A stretch of DNA of 25,421 nt from Methanobacteriota archaeon (GCA_018650165.1 JABIGM010000043.1:1-25421), one strand, 5' to 3'. Shown: positions 1,597-21,095, numbered from the stretch's first letter. Translations and numbers: made by a program. The notes: a model not told the origin generated them from the letters alone.

Positions 1597-4500
1597 TCAC
1601 ATATTGATTATTTCAGAACAGATTGGACAATCCATTTTCCTTAATGTCATATCTTTGACAGTGATACCAGCACCACAGGAGGAGCAAGTTACCTTTCTCT
1701 CTGGAGCAGGCATTGCTGGAAGCGGCAGTGGAGGTAAGTTTCCATCTCCTAGCAGCATAGGCATTTCACCTGGTGCAGGAGGTGGCGGTAATGGCGGTAA
1801 TTCACTGAGAATCGGTGCAGCAATAATTGGTAAACTTCCAGGCAGAGGAAGCGGTGGAAGATGTTTCGCCATATTTTCGAAGATTTCCTGAGCTTCTCGG
1901 TCATCTTTACGCTTCATTCTACGCTCCAATCTCTTCGATGCAGTTCCCGATTCTAGTTTTGCTTCTAATTCAGCAGTTAGATCTCGAGACTCTTCTTCGC
2001 CATCTTCGTCCTCTAAAATGACCTTTGGTGAATTCATAGAAACTAACAAGTCCGAGTCACCATCGGCATCGATGGCGACTAGTGGCCCTGTATCCTCTTC
2101 AGTGAGCACTAGTAATTCTAGGTCTCCACCTTCGGCTGAAACTTCTAATTCTTCTTCTTCACGGTGTGACCTTCGTAATACAACAATTACCAATCCAAAG
2201 AGCATGAATAGGAACACTCCTATTCCGGCTAAAGACATCAATTTCTGATCGATATTATCACCTGGCAATGGATTCAGAAGCATTTCTATTATGCCATCGC
2301 TATCATCACTTTCTGAAGGGTAAAGATACACGATTTGCTTTGCACTAATTTGTCCAGATGGTGAAGCCATAACCACAATCGCATCATCTCCGATACTACC
2401 TGCGCCAACAATATGGCCTTCTGCAATTAGATTAGATAAACCGATTTCTGAATCTCCAAGATTATACATCCCATATCGAGATACTGGGCCAAGTACTCCT
2501 ATTTCATCGTGGAATAATTTTATTTCTTTATTGGAGATTTTCATCATAATGATTTTTGTAGCACCGGGTGCGGATGTATTTACGTAATCATCAACCGACC
2601 AAATTGAATCTTGAACAACCGTGATTATCTCTGCTGAGCGACCACTGCCTTCAATCCAAGCAGAAACAAGTACGTCCTTGTTTTTGTGCTCCATTACCAA
2701 AAGTTCTGGCATGCTAGCATCATCACCTGCAGGTGCTTGGAAATTAAATGGGGTTTGTGAAATGACTCCATGCGCATAAAATAATCCCACTCTCTCAATT
2801 CCAGTAACGTCATCACGCATTGCTTGGTATAGTAGATGAATCGTATCTCGTCCGATTGCTACAGCTAATGCGTCACCATTTTGTGGTTTGATATCAATAT
2901 CAGATAAGACGTTCATTTTGGTAGTCCAACCTGTATTTGATTTTACATTTTCATTATGAACCATGAAGATATTTGTAACATCATTCCATGAACCGCCAGT
3001 TAAGATATCTCTATGGTATCCTGCAAGTACAATTTCATCTCCTCTAACTGAAAAATCCATTCCCCAATAACTGCCTTCAGATTGCTTTAGGGGAGTCAAA
3101 TATGATGTAACGCTGCTCAAATCTCCGGATAATCCAATACTTGCCATTCCTACATCTGCCAAGGTATATCCAAGTTGATCATCAAATCTCTTGCTCCAAG
3201 CAAGATGGACTCTCTTGTCATCTCTTAAAACAAATGCAAATTCTCCAGCCCAATTAGATTCAATCAATGTGTCTCCTGGCATCCCAAAAGTGGAGGTGAG
3301 GGTTCTAGCATGTAATTCTCCATCTTTCGTAGTGAATAGTAATCCTCCGCCTTTAGAACTGTCATCATCATCTGGAATGCCCACGAATCCTAACACTGCC
3401 TCTCCATCAGATAGAGTTAGTCCAGTCTTTGAGCCAACTTCGAATTCATCAACAATTACTTTGAATCGTAATTCTGAATATTGTGCAGTGACGCCATTCC
3501 CTTCTAACACCACTCGGTGTTTGACAACACCAACTGAATCGTGGGTGTTAGTGAATTGTGCCTTTGCATTTCCGGATGAACTTGTTGAACCCGGTACTAT
3601 TGAAATGGTCTTAGTGTCGCCGGGGGTACTATACCACCCACCTTCTACCCATGTGTGTAGTTTCATTTTGATGTTTGTAGCATCGTTCTGACCAAGGTTA
3701 TCAACACGTACATTGATTGTGTAGGGAATCGGGACATCAGGATCTAGGCTCGGTGAAGGAATGGATGCATAAGTCGTAACTGCGCTAGTCAAGAAACGTA
3801 AAGTTGGTTCGACTGGCCGCTCTTCAATCTCAAAAGAGAATGTATACTCATTGTCACTTTGATCATCACCCATCAATCCATTCGGATCAATTTGAATTGT
3901 AACATCATGTACTCCTGCTTCAGTTGCCCACCACCAAAGTATGACTGAGATTGTTTCGCCTTTATCCACGCGTGGCAATTTACCTTCATTTGGATAGGTG
4001 CTAGAGTCTTCACCCGGCGCATCCAAGTAGAGGGGAAGGTCAGTTGCATCTAAATCTCCAGTGTTAACTACACTGAAATGAACTTCGAGAATTGTACCTG
4101 CTACTGCTTTACTAGCGGGTAAATCTTGGTCCATAATTTGGACAGTTCCCTGGAACCTCAACTCTGGAGCTGCCGGTTGGTTGTCGATAGTAAAGGTTCT
4201 ACGAACTATATCGGATTCAGCACCACTAACATTCACTAATTTTATCGAAATCTTGTGCGACCCATCGTCTATGCTGGATGAATCCCAAGTAAATGACCAA
4301 TCTTGAGTGCTATAATCAGTGTCATCGAAGGTGTGAACATTTTCCCATTCCTCAGAATTAACACGGTACATTAGATGACTTGGCTCAATACCTTGGGCTG
4401 TTCCACTAAAACTCACTGTGTCGGTTAACGTAGAACCAGAAGAGGGTGAGCCGAATGTTACTATCATTCGACCAATATTGCCCCATCTTGCATCGCTAGA

Positions 4501-6480
4501 AACCAATTCGTCATCCCCGATTGCTTTGGCTTCAATTACAACATTTAATTCTTCAGAATCAAACCAATCATCCTTGATTAGGACATCCAAATACCATGAG
4601 TCAGTATCTCCTCCTGCTGAAGTCCAATCAAGCAAAACTACTTCCTCAAAGTCATCTAGATATTGGGTAATTCGGATATTTATTTCATTCCAAGGCCCGC
4701 TATCTGCAAGAATGCCTCCTTCGATTCTGATTATTTCTCCTGCTACAAACCAAGAGCCATTGACTATGTTGGTGATTTCTACTCCAGCGGAAGTGTCGTT
4801 ATCTGGTGGAACAACAACTCCGCCTCCACCTGAAAACGGGGCGCAATTGCGTTCAAGTGCCATGTCAACCGCGCAAGATGCATCGAGCAAACCAAAGCCC
4901 CATTCATCATTCCAACGGTCAGAAATTCCGGATTCACTAGGACTTCCTTTCTCTTCACTTGAGTTACGCAAGATATCTTTTACTTCTTCTGGAGTTAGGT
5001 CCGAATTAGCTTGAAGCATTAATGCAACTACGCCAGACACAATCGGAGTTGCCATCGAAGTACCATCCTTTGATTCATATGAATCTTCAGCCATTGGCCT
5101 TGGTGATCCGGGGAATGATGTCCCTGTAGCTGCTGATGCTGAATATATACCGCTTCCATATGCTGTAAGGTCAGGCTTTAGTTCGTCCCATTCGTCATCA
5201 TCATTATCACTTTCACGGGGCCCTGAATTTGAATAATCTGCCATGAAATCATCGGTCCGGTTGATTGAACCTGAATCATCAGCAGAAGCGATTGTGATTG
5301 CGCCATCTGCACTCCCTGGAGATGCAATACGACGCTTTCCATCATTACCTGCTGCAACAATACAAGCAATTCCGTGGTCATATGTTGCATTGTTAACCAA
5401 ACGTGATTCTGCACTAGTTCCGTTGTCACCAGTATCATTAGGGTCTAGTGCATTACCAATTGAACCAAAGGACATTTGCCCAATCTGGATTCCTTGAGCG
5501 CCATCTCCCCAATTTGTATCTTTGTTGTTAATCATCCACTGTATCCCATTCAGAGAGTTTTGTGAATTAGTACCTCCGCTGTCGGTTAGTACTTTGACAT
5601 CAACTAGGAAGGCCCCCGGTGCGGCTCCGATGTGAACTCTTGAGGAGTCTCCTGTTCCCAAAGCGATTCCTGCTACGTGGGTACCATGCCCTTGACCGTC
5701 ATCGGGGTCTTGAGATCCATCTGGATTGGATGCTTGTGAGGTTGCATCATATCCAGCAACCCACTTTTGGTCATCATAGGAATTAGCATCTAAATCTGGC
5801 TCATCGTCTTGGTCATCAAAGTCATTTAGAGAACGATGCTCATTATCTACACCACTGTCTAGAACGGCAATTACAATTCCTTCACCATCATAACCGCGGT
5901 CGTATACAGTTCCAGAATATTCGTCAGATGGTTGGATGCGTGTTGCAGGGTTTGCAGTCTCTAGGAATGTGCCCATTACATTTTGCATTTCGATGACAAC
6001 TACGGATTCGAGTGCTTGGATTTCGAGCAGTGAACTTACTGGAACATGGTCGACTACAATTGAATCTAGGGAATCGAGAACTTGGAACCATGAATCTCCA
6101 GCCTCCCATCCATGACTGCGTAAAATTGCAACCAATGCATCCGTTTCAGGTTGTGTTGGATGCCAAGCAAAGTCGACAACTATTGCAACCGTTTTACGGC
6201 CATCTGCGCCAATTATTGCTGTAGCAGAGACCGAATCTTCACCAGCTATGACCTTTTCAAGTCGGTCATCCATACCATCAAAGTTAGAATCTGGACCATA
6301 TGAAAACCACCACCCATAGTCTTCTGAAGCATATCTACCATCTCGTTCAGGTAATCGGTCTCCTGCTTCTTCGATGATTATTTCTTCAGAAGCCGGAGCC
6401 GCTGAAGCCAGTGCAGAGAGGTCTGCAATAAGAAAAACTGTGACTAGTAAAAGCGCCTTGAGGTCTCTCATTGGTGTCAT
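1597..6480 (-). CDS. Large membrane-anchored S8 (subtilisin-like) serine protease, 1627 aa: signal peptide, propeptide, S8 domain, Ig-like/CARDB-like repeats, C-terminal TM helix, cytoplasmic acidic/Pro-rich tail with Zn ribbon
   Basis: Catalytic motifs VIAVLDSGVD (Asp), HGTHVAG (His), VAAGN (oxyanion Asn) and GTSMATP (Ser). Hydrophobic N-terminus ending ASA-AP. CARDB-like segments (VHFSVVNTGDLDA..., INVRVDNLGQNDA...). TM helix LAGIGVFLFMLFGLVIVVL followed by RR. C-terminal CSSC...CPIC. The start could alternatively be the ATG at 6471. Confidence 0.93.
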   Translation of the reverse strand: MTPMRDLKALLLVTVFLIADLSALASAAPASEEIIIEEAGDRLPERDGRYASEDYGWWFSYGPDSNFDGMDDRLEKVIAGEDSVSATAIIGADGRKTVAIVVDFAWHPTQPETDALVAILRSHGWEAGDSWFQVLDSLDSIVVDHVPVSSLLEIQALESVVVIEMQNVMGTFLETANPATRIQPSDEYSGTVYDRGYDGEGIVIAVLDSGVDNEHRSLNDFDDQDDEPDLDANSYDDQKWVAGYDATSQASNPDGSQDPDDGQGHGTHVAGIALGTGDSSRVHIGAAPGAFLVDVKVLTDSGGTNSQNSLNGIQWMINNKDTNWGDGAQGIQIGQMSFGSIGNALDPNDTGDNGTSAESRLVNNATYDHGIACIVAAGNDGKRRIASPGSADGAITIASADDSGSINRTDDFMADYSNSGPRESDNDDDEWDELKPDLTAYGSGIYSASAATGTSFPGSPRPMAEDSYESKDGTSMATPIVSGVVALMLQANSDLTPEEVKDILRNSSEEKGSPSESGISDRWNDEWGFGLLDASCAVDMALERNCAPFSGGGGVVVPPDNDTSAGVEITNIVNGSWFVAGEIIRIEGGILADSGPWNEINIRITQYLDDFEEVVLLDWTSAGGDTDSWYLDVLIKDDWFDSEELNVVIEAKAIGDDELVSSDARWGNIGRMIVTFGSPSSGSTLTDTVSFSGTAQGIEPSHLMYRVNSEEWENVHTFDDTDYSTQDWSFTWDSSSIDDGSHKISIKLVNVSGAESDIVRRTFTIDNQPAAPELRFQGTVQIMDQDLPASKAVAGTILEVHFSVVNTGDLDATDLPLYLDAPGEDSSTYPNEGKLPRVDKGETISVILWWWATEAGVHDVTIQIDPNGLMGDDQSDNEYTFSFEIEERPVEPTLRFLTSAVTTYASIPSPSLDPDVPIPYTINVRVDNLGQNDATNIKMKLHTWVEGGWYSTPGDTKTISIVPGSTSSSGNAKAQFTNTHDSVGVVKHRVVLEGNGVTAQYSELRFKVIVDEFEVGSKTGLTLSDGEAVLGFVGIPDDDDSSKGGGLLFTTKDGELHARTLTSTFGMPGDTLIESNWAGEFAFVLRDDKRVHLAWSKRFDDQLGYTLADVGMASIGLSGDLSSVTSYLTPLKQSEGSYWGMDFSVRGDEIVLAGYHRDILTGGSWNDVTNIFMVHNENVKSNTGWTTKMNVLSDIDIKPQNGDALAVAIGRDTIHLLYQAMRDDVTGIERVGLFYAHGVISQTPFNFQAPAGDDASMPELLVMEHKNKDVLVSAWIEGSGRSAEIITVVQDSIWSVDDYVNTSAPGATKIIMMKISNKEIKLFHDEIGVLGPVSRYGMYNLGDSEIGLSNLIAEGHIVGAGSIGDDAIVVMASPSGQISAKQIVYLYPSESDDSDGIIEMLLNPLPGDNIDQKLMSLAGIGVFLFMLFGLVIVVLRRSHREEEELEVSAEGGDLELLVLTEEDTGPLVAIDADGDSDLLVSMNSPKVILEDEDGEEESRDLTAELEAKLESGTASKRLERRMKRKDDREAQEIFENMAKHLPPLPLPGSLPIIAAPILSELPPLPPPPAPGEMPMLLGDGNLPPLPLPAMPAPERKVTCSSCGAGITVKDMTLRKMDCPICSEIINM

Positions 6481-16120: not shown

Positions 16121-17059
16121 ATGGGCGTCACGGCAATGATTCCGAATATGACTTTCCTTCAAATGAAAGATGAGGCGAATTCTCGATGGGGAGAAATATG
16201 GGATGGAGAGGCTGCGCGACTCAATATTATGCTTCTTTGTCCGCGTAAAGAACGTAAATTATTGGAGTTACATGGTGACATGATAGATCATGGTCAGCCA
16301 GTAATGGGTATATTCCATAGACCTCGGGCTGAAGCGGATTTAATCAGCGAGCAGGGTTTCGACCCTCGCTCAGCATCATTCCAATTCCTAAATATTTCAA
16401 ATGCAGACATGGGCCCTTGGATGCAACAATTAGTTACTCAAGAAGGATGGCTACGCAGTACAATTGAACTGGCGCCAGTCCCATTTGCAATGGACATTCC
16501 AAACCAAAGACCATTCGAAAGACATTCAATCCTTTGCTTTCGGCACCCTAGTCTTCCAGCACTCGGAAAATACTTCTTGCCTTATCCAGTTAGTGCATTA
16601 GTCGGTAAAGCATTCGTGTCACTACCTCGAAAACAAGCTGCTGAACTTGCTAGACAGCAGGCTGAAATCCTAGGCGTCGGCCTAGCAAAACCAGAACCTG
16701 AAATTGTTGAAGTTCCAGTGGTTGAAAAGGTGGTAGAAGTAGAGCAAGTTCCACTTGCCGTCGAAGATGTATTCGTTTCAGAAATGGCACCTGAGGCTGC
16801 TCCTGAGATTGTATCTCCACCAATTACAGAAACTGCCGAAGTACCTGACGAAGGAAGTATTCCTCTCCCAAAGGGTACTCCCGAAATGGATAATTCTTCA
16901 CCGATAGAAAGAGAATTCCGTGGTTTAATTAAGGAACTTCTTGATGCAGGTGTTGACCCATCTGATATGATGACAGACCCACGGTTGGAAGAAATATCTG
17001 AAAGGGCTCTAGCACAGAATTTCGAAACCTGGCCAGTATTCATGCAGATGGTTGGTTGA
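16121..17059 (+). CDS. Hypothetical protein (312 aa): globular N-domain, acidic Pro/Val/Glu-rich linker, small helical C-domain
   Basis: Long ORF filling the gap between asd and the next gene, with a clear GGTGAT SD at 16112-16117. No family recognised. Confidence 0.8.
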   Translation: MGVTAMIPNMTFLQMKDEANSRWGEIWDGEAARLNIMLLCPRKERKLLELHGDMIDHGQPVMGIFHRPRAEADLISEQGFDPRSASFQFLNISNADMGPWMQQLVTQEGWLRSTIELAPVPFAMDIPNQRPFERHSILCFRHPSLPALGKYFLPYPVSALVGKAFVSLPRKQAAELARQQAEILGVGLAKPEPEIVEVPVVEKVVEVEQVPLAVEDVFVSEMAPEAAPEIVSPPITETAEVPDEGSIPLPKGTPEMDNSSPIEREFRGLIKELLDAGVDPSDMMTDPRLEEISERALAQNFETWPVFMQMVG

Positions 17060-17068
17060 ATGCGAGGG

Positions 17069-17074
17069 TTCAAG
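17069..17074 (+). promoter_or_regulatory. Putative TATA-like TTCAAG (GAGGG-TTCAAG) for the Zn-ribbon and METTL5 genes
   Basis: At -29..-24 from ATG 17098. Confidence 0.5.
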
Positions 17075-17097
17075 GACAAGTTTGGAGTGGGAGAGAT

Positions 17098-17310
17098 ATG
17101 GCATTCTGTATCAGTTGCGGCCAAATGCAGGTAGATGGAACTCGTTTCTGTCGTTTCTGCGGTGGCCAACAACCGGGCGACCAGTTAATCGCTAGACTCC
17201 GCATGGAAGCAGAAGCCATTAGATTCCACTTGCAACAATTACAGGCTCAACAGGCTCAACAGATGCAGCAATTTGGCCAGCAGCAGCAAAACCAAGGAAA
17301 CCGTTGGTGA
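17098..17310 (+). CDS. Small zinc-ribbon protein with Gln-rich tail (70 aa)
   Basis: MAFCISCG...FCRFCGG (two CxxC), then a helix and QQLQAQQAQQMQQFGQQQQNQG. I placed the start at ATG 17098 rather than the track's 17056 because the TTCAAG promoter-like hexamer lies 24-29 nt upstream and 17056 overlaps the previous gene. Confidence 0.78.
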   Translation: MAFCISCGQMQVDGTRFCRFCGGQQPGDQLIARLRMEAEAIRFHLQQLQAQQAQQMQQFGQQQQNQGNRW

Positions 17311-17315
17311 TTATT

Positions 17316-17867
17316 GTGAAACTTCGCCACTTGGCGATTGCCCTGTCAAAACTACCATCTCACCCTTGCAATAGTGTTGAGTTGGAGCAATATCAAACCG
17401 AAGGCAATCTAGCAGCATTATGGCTTTCTCAAATTGATGGCATCGATGGCCTCAGTGGAAAGAAAGTTGTAGACCTCGGTGCCGGAAATGGGATTCTAGG
17501 CCATGGTGCTCAATTACTTGGCGCAGAAGTTACGTTTGTTGAGTGTGACCCCGATGCTGCTGAATTATGCAGGGCGCTTGGAGAAACTATCGAAGGTCGT
17601 GTTGGTGAAATCGATATACCAATGGCAGATATTGTCATTTCAAATCCACCTTGGGGAGTTCAGATTCATGGGGCAGACCGCCCGTTTGTTGAAGCCGCTA
17701 TCAAATGCGCCCCGGTCATACATATGATGCACAGCGCCTCAGCCACACACCTTCCCGAGGGTGAAATAATTCTGGAAGGTGATTTTAGAATGCCTGCAAT
17801 ATACGCACATCACACCTCCAAGATGGGGGCTACTGCTGTCAAGTGTTGGCGTTTTACTCGAGGATAG
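17316..17867 (+). CDS. METTL5-family class I SAM-dependent (rRNA N6-adenine) methyltransferase
   Basis: LEQYQT motif, SAM-binding VVDLGAGNGILG and catalytic NPPW (NPPF-type). The start is most likely GTG 17316 (MKLRHLAIALSKL), with SD GGTGAT at 17306-17311. METTL5 homologs next to csl4 are a known archaeal gene neighbourhood. Confidence 0.85.
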   Translation: MKLRHLAIALSKLPSHPCNSVELEQYQTEGNLAALWLSQIDGIDGLSGKKVVDLGAGNGILGHGAQLLGAEVTFVECDPDAAELCRALGETIEGRVGEIDIPMADIVISNPPWGVQIHGADRPFVEAAIKCAPVIHMMHSASATHLPEGEIILEGDFRMPAIYAHHTSKMGATAVKCWRFTRG

Positions 17868-17939: not shown

Positions 17940-19352
17940 ATGAGCGTGAAAAAAATGGCGAGCATCGTCACCCCAGGAACCGTAGTTGGTACTACAGAGA
18001 AGAATAGCCCCGGAGCGGGGATCACTGAACAAAACGGCGACCTAGTTGCACTTTTGACAGGTGTCGTAACAGAAAATGAAGGTGTCATTAGCATAGCATC
18101 GCACAATGAAATGCTCCGACTTGAAGTCGGTGACATGATTATTGGAGAGGTTGTAAAACTAAATGAAAAAGCAGGAGAAATCCAAGTCCTAAGCGTTGAA
18201 GGAAAGCCAAATCGTTCGATTATGGCCGACCAACTTTTCGCACAATTCCACGTCACAAGAATCTGTGACCGCTTCCTACACAATACTGCGGACGGACTAC
18301 GTCGTAGAGATATTGTTCGTGCCAAGGTTAGCGAAGCAGAAAATGTAGTTCGTATCGACATGCGTGAAGATGTAAACTGTGGCGTACTTTGGGCTCTTTG
18401 CCCGCCTTGTGGAGATACCTTCGTTGCTGAACAAAATGGTGATTGGAATGTATCTTGCCCAACCTGTGGCAATCAAGCATTCCGAGCATTAGCTGATGAT
18501 TTCGGTGGAGAGGCTGGTAAGTCTGCACTAAACGGATCTGGAAAGAGATGGAGCGGGGCTGCTGAGGCGCAATTCGCTAAAGGAAGTGCGGGAAGAGCAA
18601 CTTTCATCGCAGAAGATATTCGTGAAGATGGTAGTGAACGAACCTACTTCAGATTCGAAGGTGATGTCGGCGGCGGACGTCAAGAACGTCGCCAAAAAGC
18701 AGCACCAGGTTGCAGATTATTCGTTGGCGGTCTTTCGTTTGAAGTCGAAGATGATGAATTGCGTGAAAAATTCGCAGAGCATGGGAAGATTACTGATTTC
18801 GCATTGATGAGAGATGAAACAGGCAAGAGCCGCGGATTCGGATTCATTACTTTCGATAAGAAAGCAATGGCCGATGCTGCAGTTGCTGCTCTCGATGGCT
18901 TGAGATTAAAAGGTCGTAAAATCGGTGTACGTGATGCAGATGCTCCTAAGGAAGACAAACCTCGTCGTAAGGAACCAGAAGGTGCAAAACTCTACGTTGG
19001 CAATCTGCCATTCAAAGCGAGTGAAGATGACCTGCGTGCCCTCTTCAAGGACCTTTGTGATTCGGTACACATTTACTGGCCAGCAGATAATGCGGGCCGC
19101 AAGAAGGCATTCTCATTCGTTACTGTCATGCCTGAATCAAAGGCCGAAGAAGTTGCCAAGAAACTGAATGGCAGCGATATGATGGGACGTGAAATCAAAG
19201 TCGATATTGCAAAACCACGTGACCGCAACAACCGTGGCCCAAAGGGCAAGAGTGGAGATTCAAGTGGGAAATCATCACGAGAATTACGTGCTCTTGCTGA
19301 GGAAGAAGCGGACTCTAAGAAGAAGAAGCACCGCCGACCAAAGAAGGATTGA
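17940..19352 (+). CDS. csl4: Exosome cap subunit Csl4 fused to two RRM domains and a basic tail (470 aa)
   Basis: aa 1-190 match Csl4: N-domain IVTPGTVVG...PGAGI, S1 domain VGDMIIGEV...DIVRAKV, Zn ribbon GVLWALCPPCG...CPTCGN. RRM1 has RNP2 LFVGGL and RNP1 RGFGFITF. RRM2 has RNP2 LYVGNL and RNP1 KAFSFVTV. The tail is KKKKHRRPKKD. Confidence 0.85.
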   Translation: MSVKKMASIVTPGTVVGTTEKNSPGAGITEQNGDLVALLTGVVTENEGVISIASHNEMLRLEVGDMIIGEVVKLNEKAGEIQVLSVEGKPNRSIMADQLFAQFHVTRICDRFLHNTADGLRRRDIVRAKVSEAENVVRIDMREDVNCGVLWALCPPCGDTFVAEQNGDWNVSCPTCGNQAFRALADDFGGEAGKSALNGSGKRWSGAAEAQFAKGSAGRATFIAEDIREDGSERTYFRFEGDVGGGRQERRQKAAPGCRLFVGGLSFEVEDDELREKFAEHGKITDFALMRDETGKSRGFGFITFDKKAMADAAVAALDGLRLKGRKIGVRDADAPKEDKPRRKEPEGAKLYVGNLPFKASEDDLRALFKDLCDSVHIYWPADNAGRKKAFSFVTVMPESKAEEVAKKLNGSDMMGREIKVDIAKPRDRNNRGPKGKSGDSSGKSSRELRALAEEEADSKKKKHRRPKKD

Positions 19353-19361
19353 GGTGTAGAA

Positions 19362-21095
19362 ATGGTTGAGACCCAGGAACCATCCTGGCTCGTCATTGAC
19401 GGTTATGAAGATGAACCGGCTGCTTTCGGGGTTCCGCCTTATGTCGGGTTCCATGTCAGATACATTTGTGGTGTTCTAGAACAACAAGGTATCCCTTACG
19501 AATATTGTACAATAGATTCCTACCGCCTGTCACCCCCTTCTCTAGAAAACCGATTAGGTATTGTGATTTTAGCGGGCGCTGTAGTTCCAGGCAAGTACTT
19601 GCGTGGTGCTCCAATATCCCTTCGTGAAACTCGTGAGTTGATCACTAAATCTCCAGGAAATACTCCGATTTTGTGTGGTGGCTGGGCTATTCGTGGTTGG
19701 AAAAATCAAGGATGGAGTCCTCTTCGTCACAATTTATTCCTTGCATTACAAGATACAGATGCGACATTATCCTACTTTTTAGACAAGAGTGAATGGAAGC
19801 ACCAAAGGCGTAATTCTGAGCAATGGACTGCTTGGGCACAAGCTGGAGCGAGATCCAAAGCAGTAACCAATAATCCAGACCTAAACGGCCCACTAACCTA
19901 CGAAGTAGAAGTCTACCAAGGATGCGTTAGGTACAAACGCGGCTGTAAGTTTTGTATTGAACCAAAGAAAGGAGTTCCTATTTGGCGCAGTCCGGAAGAT
20001 ATCATCGAGGAAGTGCGAATCGCTCATGACATGGGTGTTGAACATGTTCGCTTAGGTGGGATGACAGATACTTACACCTACATGGCCGAAGGTGTTGTTG
20101 AGATGGAATATCCTCGTCCAAATCCTGAGCCAATAGCAAAATTACTTCACGGCTTACGTGATGATGAAAGACTAGGAATCCTGCATACAGACAACGGCAA
20201 CCCATCTATTATCGCAGAACATCTGGAAGAGTCTGAAGAAATTACCAAAACTTTGGTAGAGACACTATCTGATGGAGCAGTTCTCTCTTTTGGATTAGAA
20301 TCGGCAGACCCAAATGTCCATGAAGAAAATTGGTTAAACTGTGATGCTAAACAATTGAAGTCTGCAATTGCTCTAATCAACAAACATGGCAGAACTCGTG
20401 GTGAAAGAGGGCTGCCCAAATTATTACCAGGACTCAACTTTATTGCTGGATTAAATGGTGAATCAAGTATAACATACGGCCTCAATTTGAAACTTCTTAG
20501 AGAATTGAAGGAAGAAGGTCACATGATTAGAAGAGTCAATATTCGTCAAGTAGAGGGTGAAGGTTTCCAAGAAATCGATGATGTTGATTTCCGTTCTTTC
20601 AAGAATAGTGTGAGAGAAGAGTTCGACGGACCTCTTCTGGAAGAGATGTTACCTATTGGAACAATACTAGACGATGTTTGGTGGGAGGCGCATGATGGTA
20701 GAACTCGCCTTCCTCGACACTTAGGACCTGAGGCAAGAGACCCCACGATTCATGGAAAACCGGGAATTACATTTGGCCGTCAAATCGGTGCATATCCGAT
20801 TTTGGTTGGCATGAATTATCTCGCTCCTCTAGAAAATTATTCTCAAATTCTGGTCACTGGCCATGGTGCACGTTCAATTACTGGAATTGAAACTGGATTA
20901 GATTGGAGGACCGTTACGGAAAAGCAGTTGGCTGCAGTTCCTGGAATCTCGGCCAAAGGCGCTTGGAATCTAATAGGAACAAGGGCAAAAGCACACTCGA
21001 AAAAGCGCCCACTTGAAAGTGTGGAAGATTGGTTCAAATCTGCGGGTGTAAATATCCCAGAACTAATTGATTTTGAGAAGATATTGAAGGATTAA
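19362..21095 (+). CDS. Radical SAM protein with C-terminal helix-hairpin-helix (COG1031-like), function unknown
   Basis: N-terminal IDGYEDEPAAFGVPPY, cluster motif GCVRYKRGCKFC (CX6CX2C), SFGLESAD, NFIAGL.GE, RRVNIRQV, FGRQIGAYPILVG and HhH-like LAAVPGISAKGA. SD GAGGTG at 19351-19356. Confidence 0.85.
   Translation: MVETQEPSWLVIDGYEDEPAAFGVPPYVGFHVRYICGVLEQQGIPYEYCTIDSYRLSPPSLENRLGIVILAGAVVPGKYLRGAPISLRETRELITKSPGNTPILCGGWAIRGWKNQGWSPLRHNLFLALQDTDATLSYFLDKSEWKHQRRNSEQWTAWAQAGARSKAVTNNPDLNGPLTYEVEVYQGCVRYKRGCKFCIEPKKGVPIWRSPEDIIEEVRIAHDMGVEHVRLGGMTDTYTYMAEGVVEMEYPRPNPEPIAKLLHGLRDDERLGILHTDNGNPSIIAEHLEESEEITKTLVETLSDGAVLSFGLESADPNVHEENWLNCDAKQLKSAIALINKHGRTRGERGLPKLLPGLNFIAGLNGESSITYGLNLKLLRELKEEGHMIRRVNIRQVEGEGFQEIDDVDFRSFKNSVREEFDGPLLEEMLPIGTILDDVWWEAHDGRTRLPRHLGPEARDPTIHGKPGITFGRQIGAYPILVGMNYLAPLENYSQILVTGHGARSITGIETGLDWRTVTEKQLAAVPGISAKGAWNLIGTRAKAHSKKRPLESVEDWFKSAGVNIPELIDFEKILKD

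Follow-up and report, generated by a model that had tools for sequence, protein, structure and literature searches.

An exosome Csl4 with a lineage-wide, predicted RNA-binding extension in Poseidoniales

Results

The DNA analysed here is a stretch of 25,421 nucleotides from a Methanobacteriota archaeon (GCA_018650165.1, JABIGM010000043.1:1-25421; hereafter the window). One of its genes, csl4-RRM2, encodes Csl4, the cap subunit of the archaeal exosome, in the same frame as two RNA recognition motif (RRM) domains. Translation of the window showed no stop codon within this open reading frame (ORF), in agreement with the original prediction of a single uninterrupted frame of 470 amino acids (aa). 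Homologues in the alignment begin with MASIVTPG, so translation probably starts at the ATG at 17955, giving a protein of 465 aa. The gene and its parts are as follows (RNP1 and RNP2, ribonucleoprotein motifs; AF2, AlphaFold2; pLDDT, predicted local distance difference test; Zn, zinc).

17940..19352, plus strand: whole csl4-RRM2 gene; ORF of 470 aa plus stop
17964..18071, plus strand: Csl4 N-terminal domain, residues 9-44; Pfam ECR1_N, E = 3.9e-7, anchor role from literature cited in PMC4227792
18117..18359, plus strand: Csl4 S1-type beta-barrel, residues ~60-140; 2ba1_A alignment, AF2 strands at pLDDT 80-90, Foldseek
18378..18506, plus strand: Zn ribbon of Csl4, residues 147-189; paired cysteines C154/C157 and C173/C176, NF034126 and 2ba1_A alignments
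18522..18587, plus strand: post-Csl4 motif LNxxGKRWxxxAE..., residues 195-216; alignment, common to all three families of the order
18588..18674, plus strand: stretch GRATFIAEDxREDGxERTYFRFEG, residues 217-245; highest conservation in the protein within this family, predicted disordered when folded alone
18711..18944, plus strand: RRM1, residues 258-335; RNP2 LFVGGL, RNP1 RGFGFITF; Pfam, AF2, alignment
18984..19214, plus strand: RRM2, residues 349-425; RNP2 LYVGNL, RNP1 KKAFSFVTV; Pfam, AF2, tree, long branch
19260..19349, plus strand: C-terminal motif GKSxRELxAxxEE (residues 441-456) and Lys/Arg tail (457-470); alignment, predicted helix 446-461

The appendage that follows the Zn ribbon of Csl4 thus comprises about 280 residues: the motif region, two RRMs, a short helix and a basic tail. 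The Lys/Arg tail expected from the sequence is present, and the conserved GKSxRELxAxxEE motif stands directly before it.

Residues 9-189 were confirmed as a complete Csl4. The NCBIfam equivalog model for Csl4, NF034126, scored 105 bits against a cut-off of 90, and residues 9-188 covered model positions 2-178 of 180. Consistently, a phmmer search of the PDB returned A. fulgidus Csl4 as the best solved sequence relative (2ba1_A, E = 3e-16, residues 9-189), in an alignment that spans all three Csl4 domains (N-domain, S1 and Zn ribbon). An AF2 model was built with 44 homologues, and its Csl4 part reached pLDDT 80-90. When this model was queried with Foldseek, 2ba1_A was again the top match (E = 3.5e-17, template modelling score 0.65 by target); Csl4 of yeast and of human appeared among the matches as well. 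Of the Zn-ribbon cysteines, C154, C157 and C173 are conserved without exception and C176 in 41 of the 44 homologues. The model score, the match in sequence and fold, and the retained cysteines together bear out the complete Csl4 that had been proposed for this part of the protein.

Purifying selection acts on the Csl4 part, which is the sole Csl4 match in its own genome (80% complete). The protein departs from the canonical form in its size: canonical Csl4 has about 180-190 aa and ends just past the Zn ribbon, as against 470 aa here. The length of about 190 aa that had been taken as normal for archaeal Csl4 holds for the sister order (184 aa) and for most other Thermoplasmatota (183-195 aa). 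Because this is the only Csl4 copy detected, and because the unfused gene of the sister order shares the adjacency of a methyltransferase gene with csl4, we conclude that csl4-RRM2 is orthologous to the gene for the archaeal exosome cap subunit and that the organism has no other csl4.

The two RRMs are equally well defined. Pfam PF00076 (RRM_1) matched in two stretches with 117 bits (cut-off 20.7, E = 3.1e-34), and both domains were modelled with pLDDT of about 80 and with the beta-alpha-beta-beta-alpha-beta pattern in DSSP. The RNP aromatics F261, F300, F302, F391 and F393 are kept in 44/44 homologues and Y352 in 43/44, so the RNP2 and RNP1 motifs are intact in both domains, as had been read from the sequence. 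Structure and sequence searches matched the tandem-RRM proteins HuD, Sxl, HuR, hnRNP A1, hnRNP A2/B1, PABP and Hrp1. These nearest solved relatives differ widely in RNA preference.

RRM1 is 47-55% identical to free RRM proteins, those of bacterial Rbp type and of CIRBP/GRP type alike. The whole protein also scored 115 bits with NCBIfam NF058537 (Rbp type, cut-off 100), a score summed over the two domains. The label "eukaryote-like" given to these RRMs in the original prediction may or may not be apt, as identity is about 50% to bacterial and CIRBP/GRP-type domains alike and the RRMs form their own clade in the tree described below. The statement that RRMs are uncommon in archaea fails for this phylum: outside the order, about 47 of 306 sampled genomes carry a free single-RRM gene. 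In the organism's own genome, a scan found only the two RRMs of Csl4; therefore, these RRMs would serve the exosome only.

The fused architecture extends over the whole order (Poseidoniales, Marine Group II (MGII)). Of the 151 genomes sampled, 150 encode a Csl4 with an RNA-binding extension; they cover 22/22 genera and include single-contig genomes, in which the fused gene is the only Csl4 detected. A search covering 5.8 billion proteins recovered more than 100 clusters (90% identity) of full-length look-alikes of 450-520 aa, with identity to this protein down to 51%. These clusters come from many sources, some of them on contigs of 2.0-2.4 Mb. Nothing was found in favour of an artefact of assembly or gene calling that joined csl4 to a neighbouring RRM gene, and it can hardly be entertained, given the same single open frame in those 150 genomes, in many independent assemblies and sources, and a junction region more conserved than any other part of the gene. 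The fusion is genuine rather than an assembly chimera.

No description of a Csl4-RRM protein was found in the searchable literature, which agrees with the suggestion that the architecture is undescribed. The protein is nevertheless widespread and auto-annotated in public data: JGI names for look-alikes pair "RNA recognition motif-containing protein" with "Csl4", and the NCBI name is "Csl4 [Candidatus Poseidoniaceae archaeon]". The protein is thus a bona fide Csl4 with a lineage-wide, previously undescribed RNA-binding extension, which databases already hold and name automatically.

The region between Csl4 and RRM1 had been described as a Gly/Arg-rich linker. Instead, the alignment showed that residues 195-245 form a strongly conserved module and that only residues ~246-255 form a variable G/R spacer. 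Across 19 genomes, mean pairwise identity is 0.71 for residues 217-245, compared with 0.54 for S1, 0.60 for RRM1 and 0.47 for RRM2, and in the 44-sequence alignment 18 of the 29 columns are at least 90% conserved. Synonymous-codon sameness in this segment (0.45) resembles that in the rest of the gene (0.38-0.51), so the constraint acts on the protein and not on RNA. For the same reason, an embedded RNA element or an overlapping gene behind the conservation was rejected.

When the protein was folded alone in AF2, residues 217-253 had pLDDT below 50. No match was found for residues 188-256 in Pfam (even to E = 10) or among PDB sequences, and none that was usable in the ESM Atlas. We also considered the linker as a degenerate version, without cysteines, of the treble-clef zinc finger found in the second large family described below; the two fall in overlapping columns of a MAFFT alignment, and the idea was dropped as the similarity was unconvincing. 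Because residues 217-245 and 441-456 are both conserved yet (probably) disordered when folded alone, they are likely docking motifs for another factor.

The partner genes of an archaeal exosome are present in the same genome. A psmA-SBDS-rrp4-rrp41-rrp42 operon lies on contig C37 and archaeal dnaG on contig C29 (NF003108, 362 bits, cut-off 300), so that all four genes to be looked for (rrp41, rrp42, rrp4 and dnaG) were found. Rrp41 can be aligned from end to end with solved archaeal Rrp41 (E = 1e-76) and retains the phosphate-binding and catalytic motif blocks; the Rrp41 scan also matched PNPase models. As a separate observation, the genome encodes a bacterial-type RNase PH besides Rrp41 and Rrp42 (contig C4, 8022-8411; L004 1114-1953, minus strand; TIGR01966, 245 bits, cut-off 141.5).

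To place csl4-RRM2 among its relatives, we compared the following Csl4 architectures.

Own family (MGIIa/Poseidoniaceae by the NCBI names of close matches): Csl4, conserved motif, RRM, RRM, C-terminal motif
Second large family: Csl4, motif, treble-clef Zn finger zf_Tbcl_2, one RRM, RGG tail
Small third family: two RRMs; one RRM in a look-alike metagenomic protein
Metagenomic variant of an unplaced lineage (P0135, 460 aa): two treble-clef Zn fingers and a long RGG tail, no RRM, C-terminal motif kept
Sister order in the same class: Csl4 of 184 aa with no extension, immediately behind the same small methyltransferase; free 94-aa RRM gene elsewhere

The second large family is presumably MGIIb, and in 73 of its 74 genomes zf_Tbcl_2 occurs once per genome, inside the csl4 frame. 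P0135 ends in a conserved R-E..A..EEG motif. The LNxxGKRWxxxAE motif at residues 195-216 is common to all families of the order. As judged from these sequences, the appendage always appears to be of RNA-binding type though its parts differ (RRM-RRM; ZnF-RRM-RGG; ZnF-ZnF-RGG; single RRM).

A domain tree placed the RRMs of Csl4 in relation to free RRMs from bacteria, CIRBP/GRP-like proteins, the sister order and other Thermoplasmatota. In this tree, which covers a short domain in 82 columns, has no known root and uses outgroups picked by similarity to RRM1, all Csl4-fused RRMs are set apart from every free RRM sampled by a 100/100 branch. RRM2 of the own family forms a separate long-branch clade (100/100) and, by its sequence, is a family-specific duplicate. 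In the small third family, the two RRMs group most closely with each other (99/99), which indicates an independent duplication. The pattern fits a single acquisition of an RRM by the order's ancestor, with duplications and swaps within the gene thereafter. Free single-RRM genes occur in 10/10 sister-order genomes. Read-through fusion with an adjacent RRM gene was not supported, as the free RRM of the sister order does not lie beside csl4 and falls in a different clade of the tree.

Extensions at the C-terminus of Csl4 are also found beyond the order. Our representative Csl4 search covered the best 150 of 379 matches. In other Thermoplasmatota, Csl4 is mostly 183-195 aa long, and a minority of the proteins carry RGG-like (Arg/Gly-rich) tails of 50-150 residues. 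Among 80 related Csl4 clusters, 17 exceed 215 aa, and about 10 of these 17 are RG-rich-tailed (e.g. P0202, P0204, P0186, P0346, P0347, P0376 and P0391). Because the appendages vary within the order and RGG tails occur elsewhere in Thermoplasmatota, the Csl4 C-terminus looks like a site to which RNA binders have been attached repeatedly. At the other end of the protein, the Csl4 representatives P0142, P0148, P0153, P0154, P0191 and P0218 have N-terminal extensions of 80-300 residues, which may be fusions with the upstream methyltransferase or mis-called starts in the methyltransferase gene.

The genes on either side of csl4-RRM2 in the window are the following.

17304..17867, plus strand: small class-I methyltransferase gene, upstream of csl4; Pfam MTS/PrmA-like, weak matches
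19362..21095, plus strand: gene for a 577-aa radical-SAM protein, downstream of csl4; Pfam, gap to csl4 of 9 nucleotides (nt)

A small methyltransferase gene (also at L015 896-1507) immediately precedes csl4 in each of the order's three families, and it overlaps csl4 by 4 nt in the sister order. From this arrangement, the methyltransferase looks like an ancestral neighbour of csl4. The radical-SAM gene follows csl4 in all three families (L009 3793-5613; L011 243-1964, minus strand), whereas the sister order lacks this neighbour. Next to the methyltransferase on its upstream side, an 84-aa ORF at 17056-17310 has a zinc-ribbon-like start (CxxC...CxxC) and a Gln-rich tail, without a family match. 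Elsewhere in the window, positions 1597-6480 (minus strand) hold a very long ORF of 1627 aa.

Discussion

Csl4-RRM2 probably provides a C-terminal RNA-binding arm on the exosome cap, with tethered RRMs that would catch single-stranded RNA. In solved archaeal exosomes, the Csl4 N-domain anchors to the ring and the Zn ribbon is peripheral, and in Sulfolobus DnaG docks via Csl4 (PMC3672285, PMC4227792). As in those structures, the N-domain, S1 domain and Zn ribbon would sit on the Rrp41/Rrp42 phosphorolytic ring. The RRMs would hang off the peripheral Zn ribbon by a flexible tether and bind single-stranded RNA. Tethering may raise the local substrate concentration near the S1 pore, or select substrates, for 3'-5' decay or A-rich tailing, and the conserved disordered motifs at residues 217-245 and 441-456 would dock another factor. 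Ring assembly, RNA binding, an effect on substrate choice and motif docking are the steps that we infer here.

The proposal of tethered RRMs draws on an engineered protein of the same topology. In the Csl4-NT chimera (Hou et al. 2014, PMC4227792), the RNA-binding N-terminal domain (NTD) of DnaG was placed at the C-terminus of S. solfataricus Csl4, and the chimera assembles with the ring. Exosomes with Csl4-NT degrade poly(A) more rapidly than Csl4 exosomes do, even when the latter have DnaG bound, and the chimera in this way confers its own RNA preference on the exosome (PMC4227792). With an RNA-binding domain on the Csl4 C-terminus, this chimera is the nearest functional precedent for the natural protein. 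It differs in being man-made and crenarchaeal and in carrying the DnaG NTD rather than an RRM, and the extra motifs of the natural protein have no counterpart there.

Three points weigh against this proposal. AF2 gives the RRMs no defined position relative to Csl4 (predicted template modelling score 0.38); the most conserved segment of the protein, residues 217-245, is left unexplained by RNA capture; and the in vivo role of Csl4-RRM2 is an inference for organisms that are uncultured. Complex prediction with the appendage (residues 191-470) as a separate chain against Rrp41, Rrp42 and Csl4(1-190) gave scores of 0.47, 0.25 and 0.00 relative to a mark of 0.32, with no verdict either way.

Among the alternatives, the one that survives best, which we still regard as unlikely, keeps the protein in the same complex and gives the arm another job. 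Rather than choosing substrates for decay, the appendage would tether the exosome to a fixed RNA or ribonucleoprotein, such as rRNA or ribosomes, to serve 3' maturation or A-rich tailing, or it would be an RNA chaperone, melting structure ahead of the pore. RGG tails and free RRMs of Rbp/CIRBP type are general low-specificity RNA binders or chaperones, and the neighbouring methyltransferase and radical-SAM enzyme fit a context of RNA modification or the ribosome, though gene adjacency alone is weak evidence. Moreover, Csl4-bound DnaG in S. solfataricus enables tailing of 16S rRNA 3' ends and not decay (PMC4227792). No observation separates this alternative from the capture of substrates by a tethered arm.

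A more specific idea concerns tail reading. PAP_assoc, a marker of Cid1/TUT-type nucleotidyltransferases, occurs in proteins of about 700 aa in 53/74 genomes of the own family, 0/74 genomes of the second large family and 0/14 control genomes; related genomes are not independent samples, and the overlap is one at family level. In the organism's own genome, the match lies on contig C43 at 4075-4296 in a frame of about 699 aa (L040). The two-RRM arm might then read tails added by such an enzyme, in a eukaryote-like tag-and-destroy manner in which tailed RNAs would pass directly into the exosome, with the conserved motifs docking the tailing enzyme or a cofactor; we consider this quite unlikely. 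Strict coupling of the two-RRM Csl4 with a Cid1-type enzyme was not supported, since one two-RRM genus has PAP_assoc in only 2/20 genomes.

It is also improbable that the protein acts mainly off the exosome, as a free multi-domain RNA-binding protein, with the cap made of Rrp4 alone. Rrp4 homotrimers work as caps in vitro (PMC4227792), and some archaea without Csl4 keep Rrp4, Rrp41 and Rrp42 (PMC7414124). However, the ring-anchoring N-domain is kept here and scores as ECR1_N, the Csl4 model is covered over its whole length, and the Csl4 part is held by purifying selection. The genome also retains dnaG, whose product needs Csl4 for docking in Sulfolobus.

The RRMs might instead be protein-interaction modules resembling U2AF homology motifs (UHMs), which would recruit another factor rather than bind RNA. 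The two conserved, probably disordered motifs that flank the RRMs hint at protein partners. Nevertheless, we hold this to be very improbable, because RNP1 and RNP2 are canonical with (near-)invariant stacking aromatics, which UHMs typically lose, and the modules that take the place of the RRMs within the order (treble-clef Zn finger and RGG) are nucleic-acid binders.

Returning to the tethered arm, the protein can be set against known systems. Canonical archaeal Csl4 (A. fulgidus AF0206, PDB 2BA1/3M7N/3M85; S. solfataricus Csl4; NF034126) shares the three domains, the predicted fold and the partner set of Rrp4, Rrp41, Rrp42 and DnaG, and lacks the extension. Csl4 of the sister order has the same small-methyltransferase neighbour. 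Free single-RRM proteins (Rbp type NF058537 and CIRBP/GRP) resemble RRM1, and the sister order and other Thermoplasmatota carry such genes. Bacterial PNPase carries KH and S1 RNA-binding domains on the same chain as its RNase PH core. It shares with Csl4-RRM2 the design of a phosphorolytic RNase PH ring with covalent RNA-binding modules, which sit on the catalytic chain in PNPase but on the cap subunit here.

The original prediction had likened the protein to the eukaryotic adaptors NEXT/RBM7 and Nrd1-Nab3. The likeness stands only as a functional analogy, as RRMs bring RNA to the exosome in those systems. It does not extend to their construction: the adaptors are separate polypeptides that act via Mtr4/TRAMP (or Sen1) and are helicase-bridged, whereas the RRMs described here are a covalent part of the cap chain and are not known to have a link to a helicase. 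We found no homology to the eukaryotic adaptors beyond the generic RRM fold, and no sign of shared descent.

MGII are among the most abundant archaea of the surface ocean and are uncultured, and to our knowledge almost nothing is known about how they control their RNA. In the archaeal exosomes studied so far, RNA preference comes from Rrp4 and from DnaG docked through Csl4. Our results suggest that a whole order has built additional RNA binders (RRMs, a zinc finger and RGG tails) permanently into Csl4 and has reshuffled them repeatedly, always keeping the RNA-binding type, and the extreme conservation of the 29-residue motif at 217-245 points to a partner factor. The Csl4 of this order would thus be a natural experiment in how an exosome gains substrate adaptors, a task for which eukaryotes use separate cofactors.

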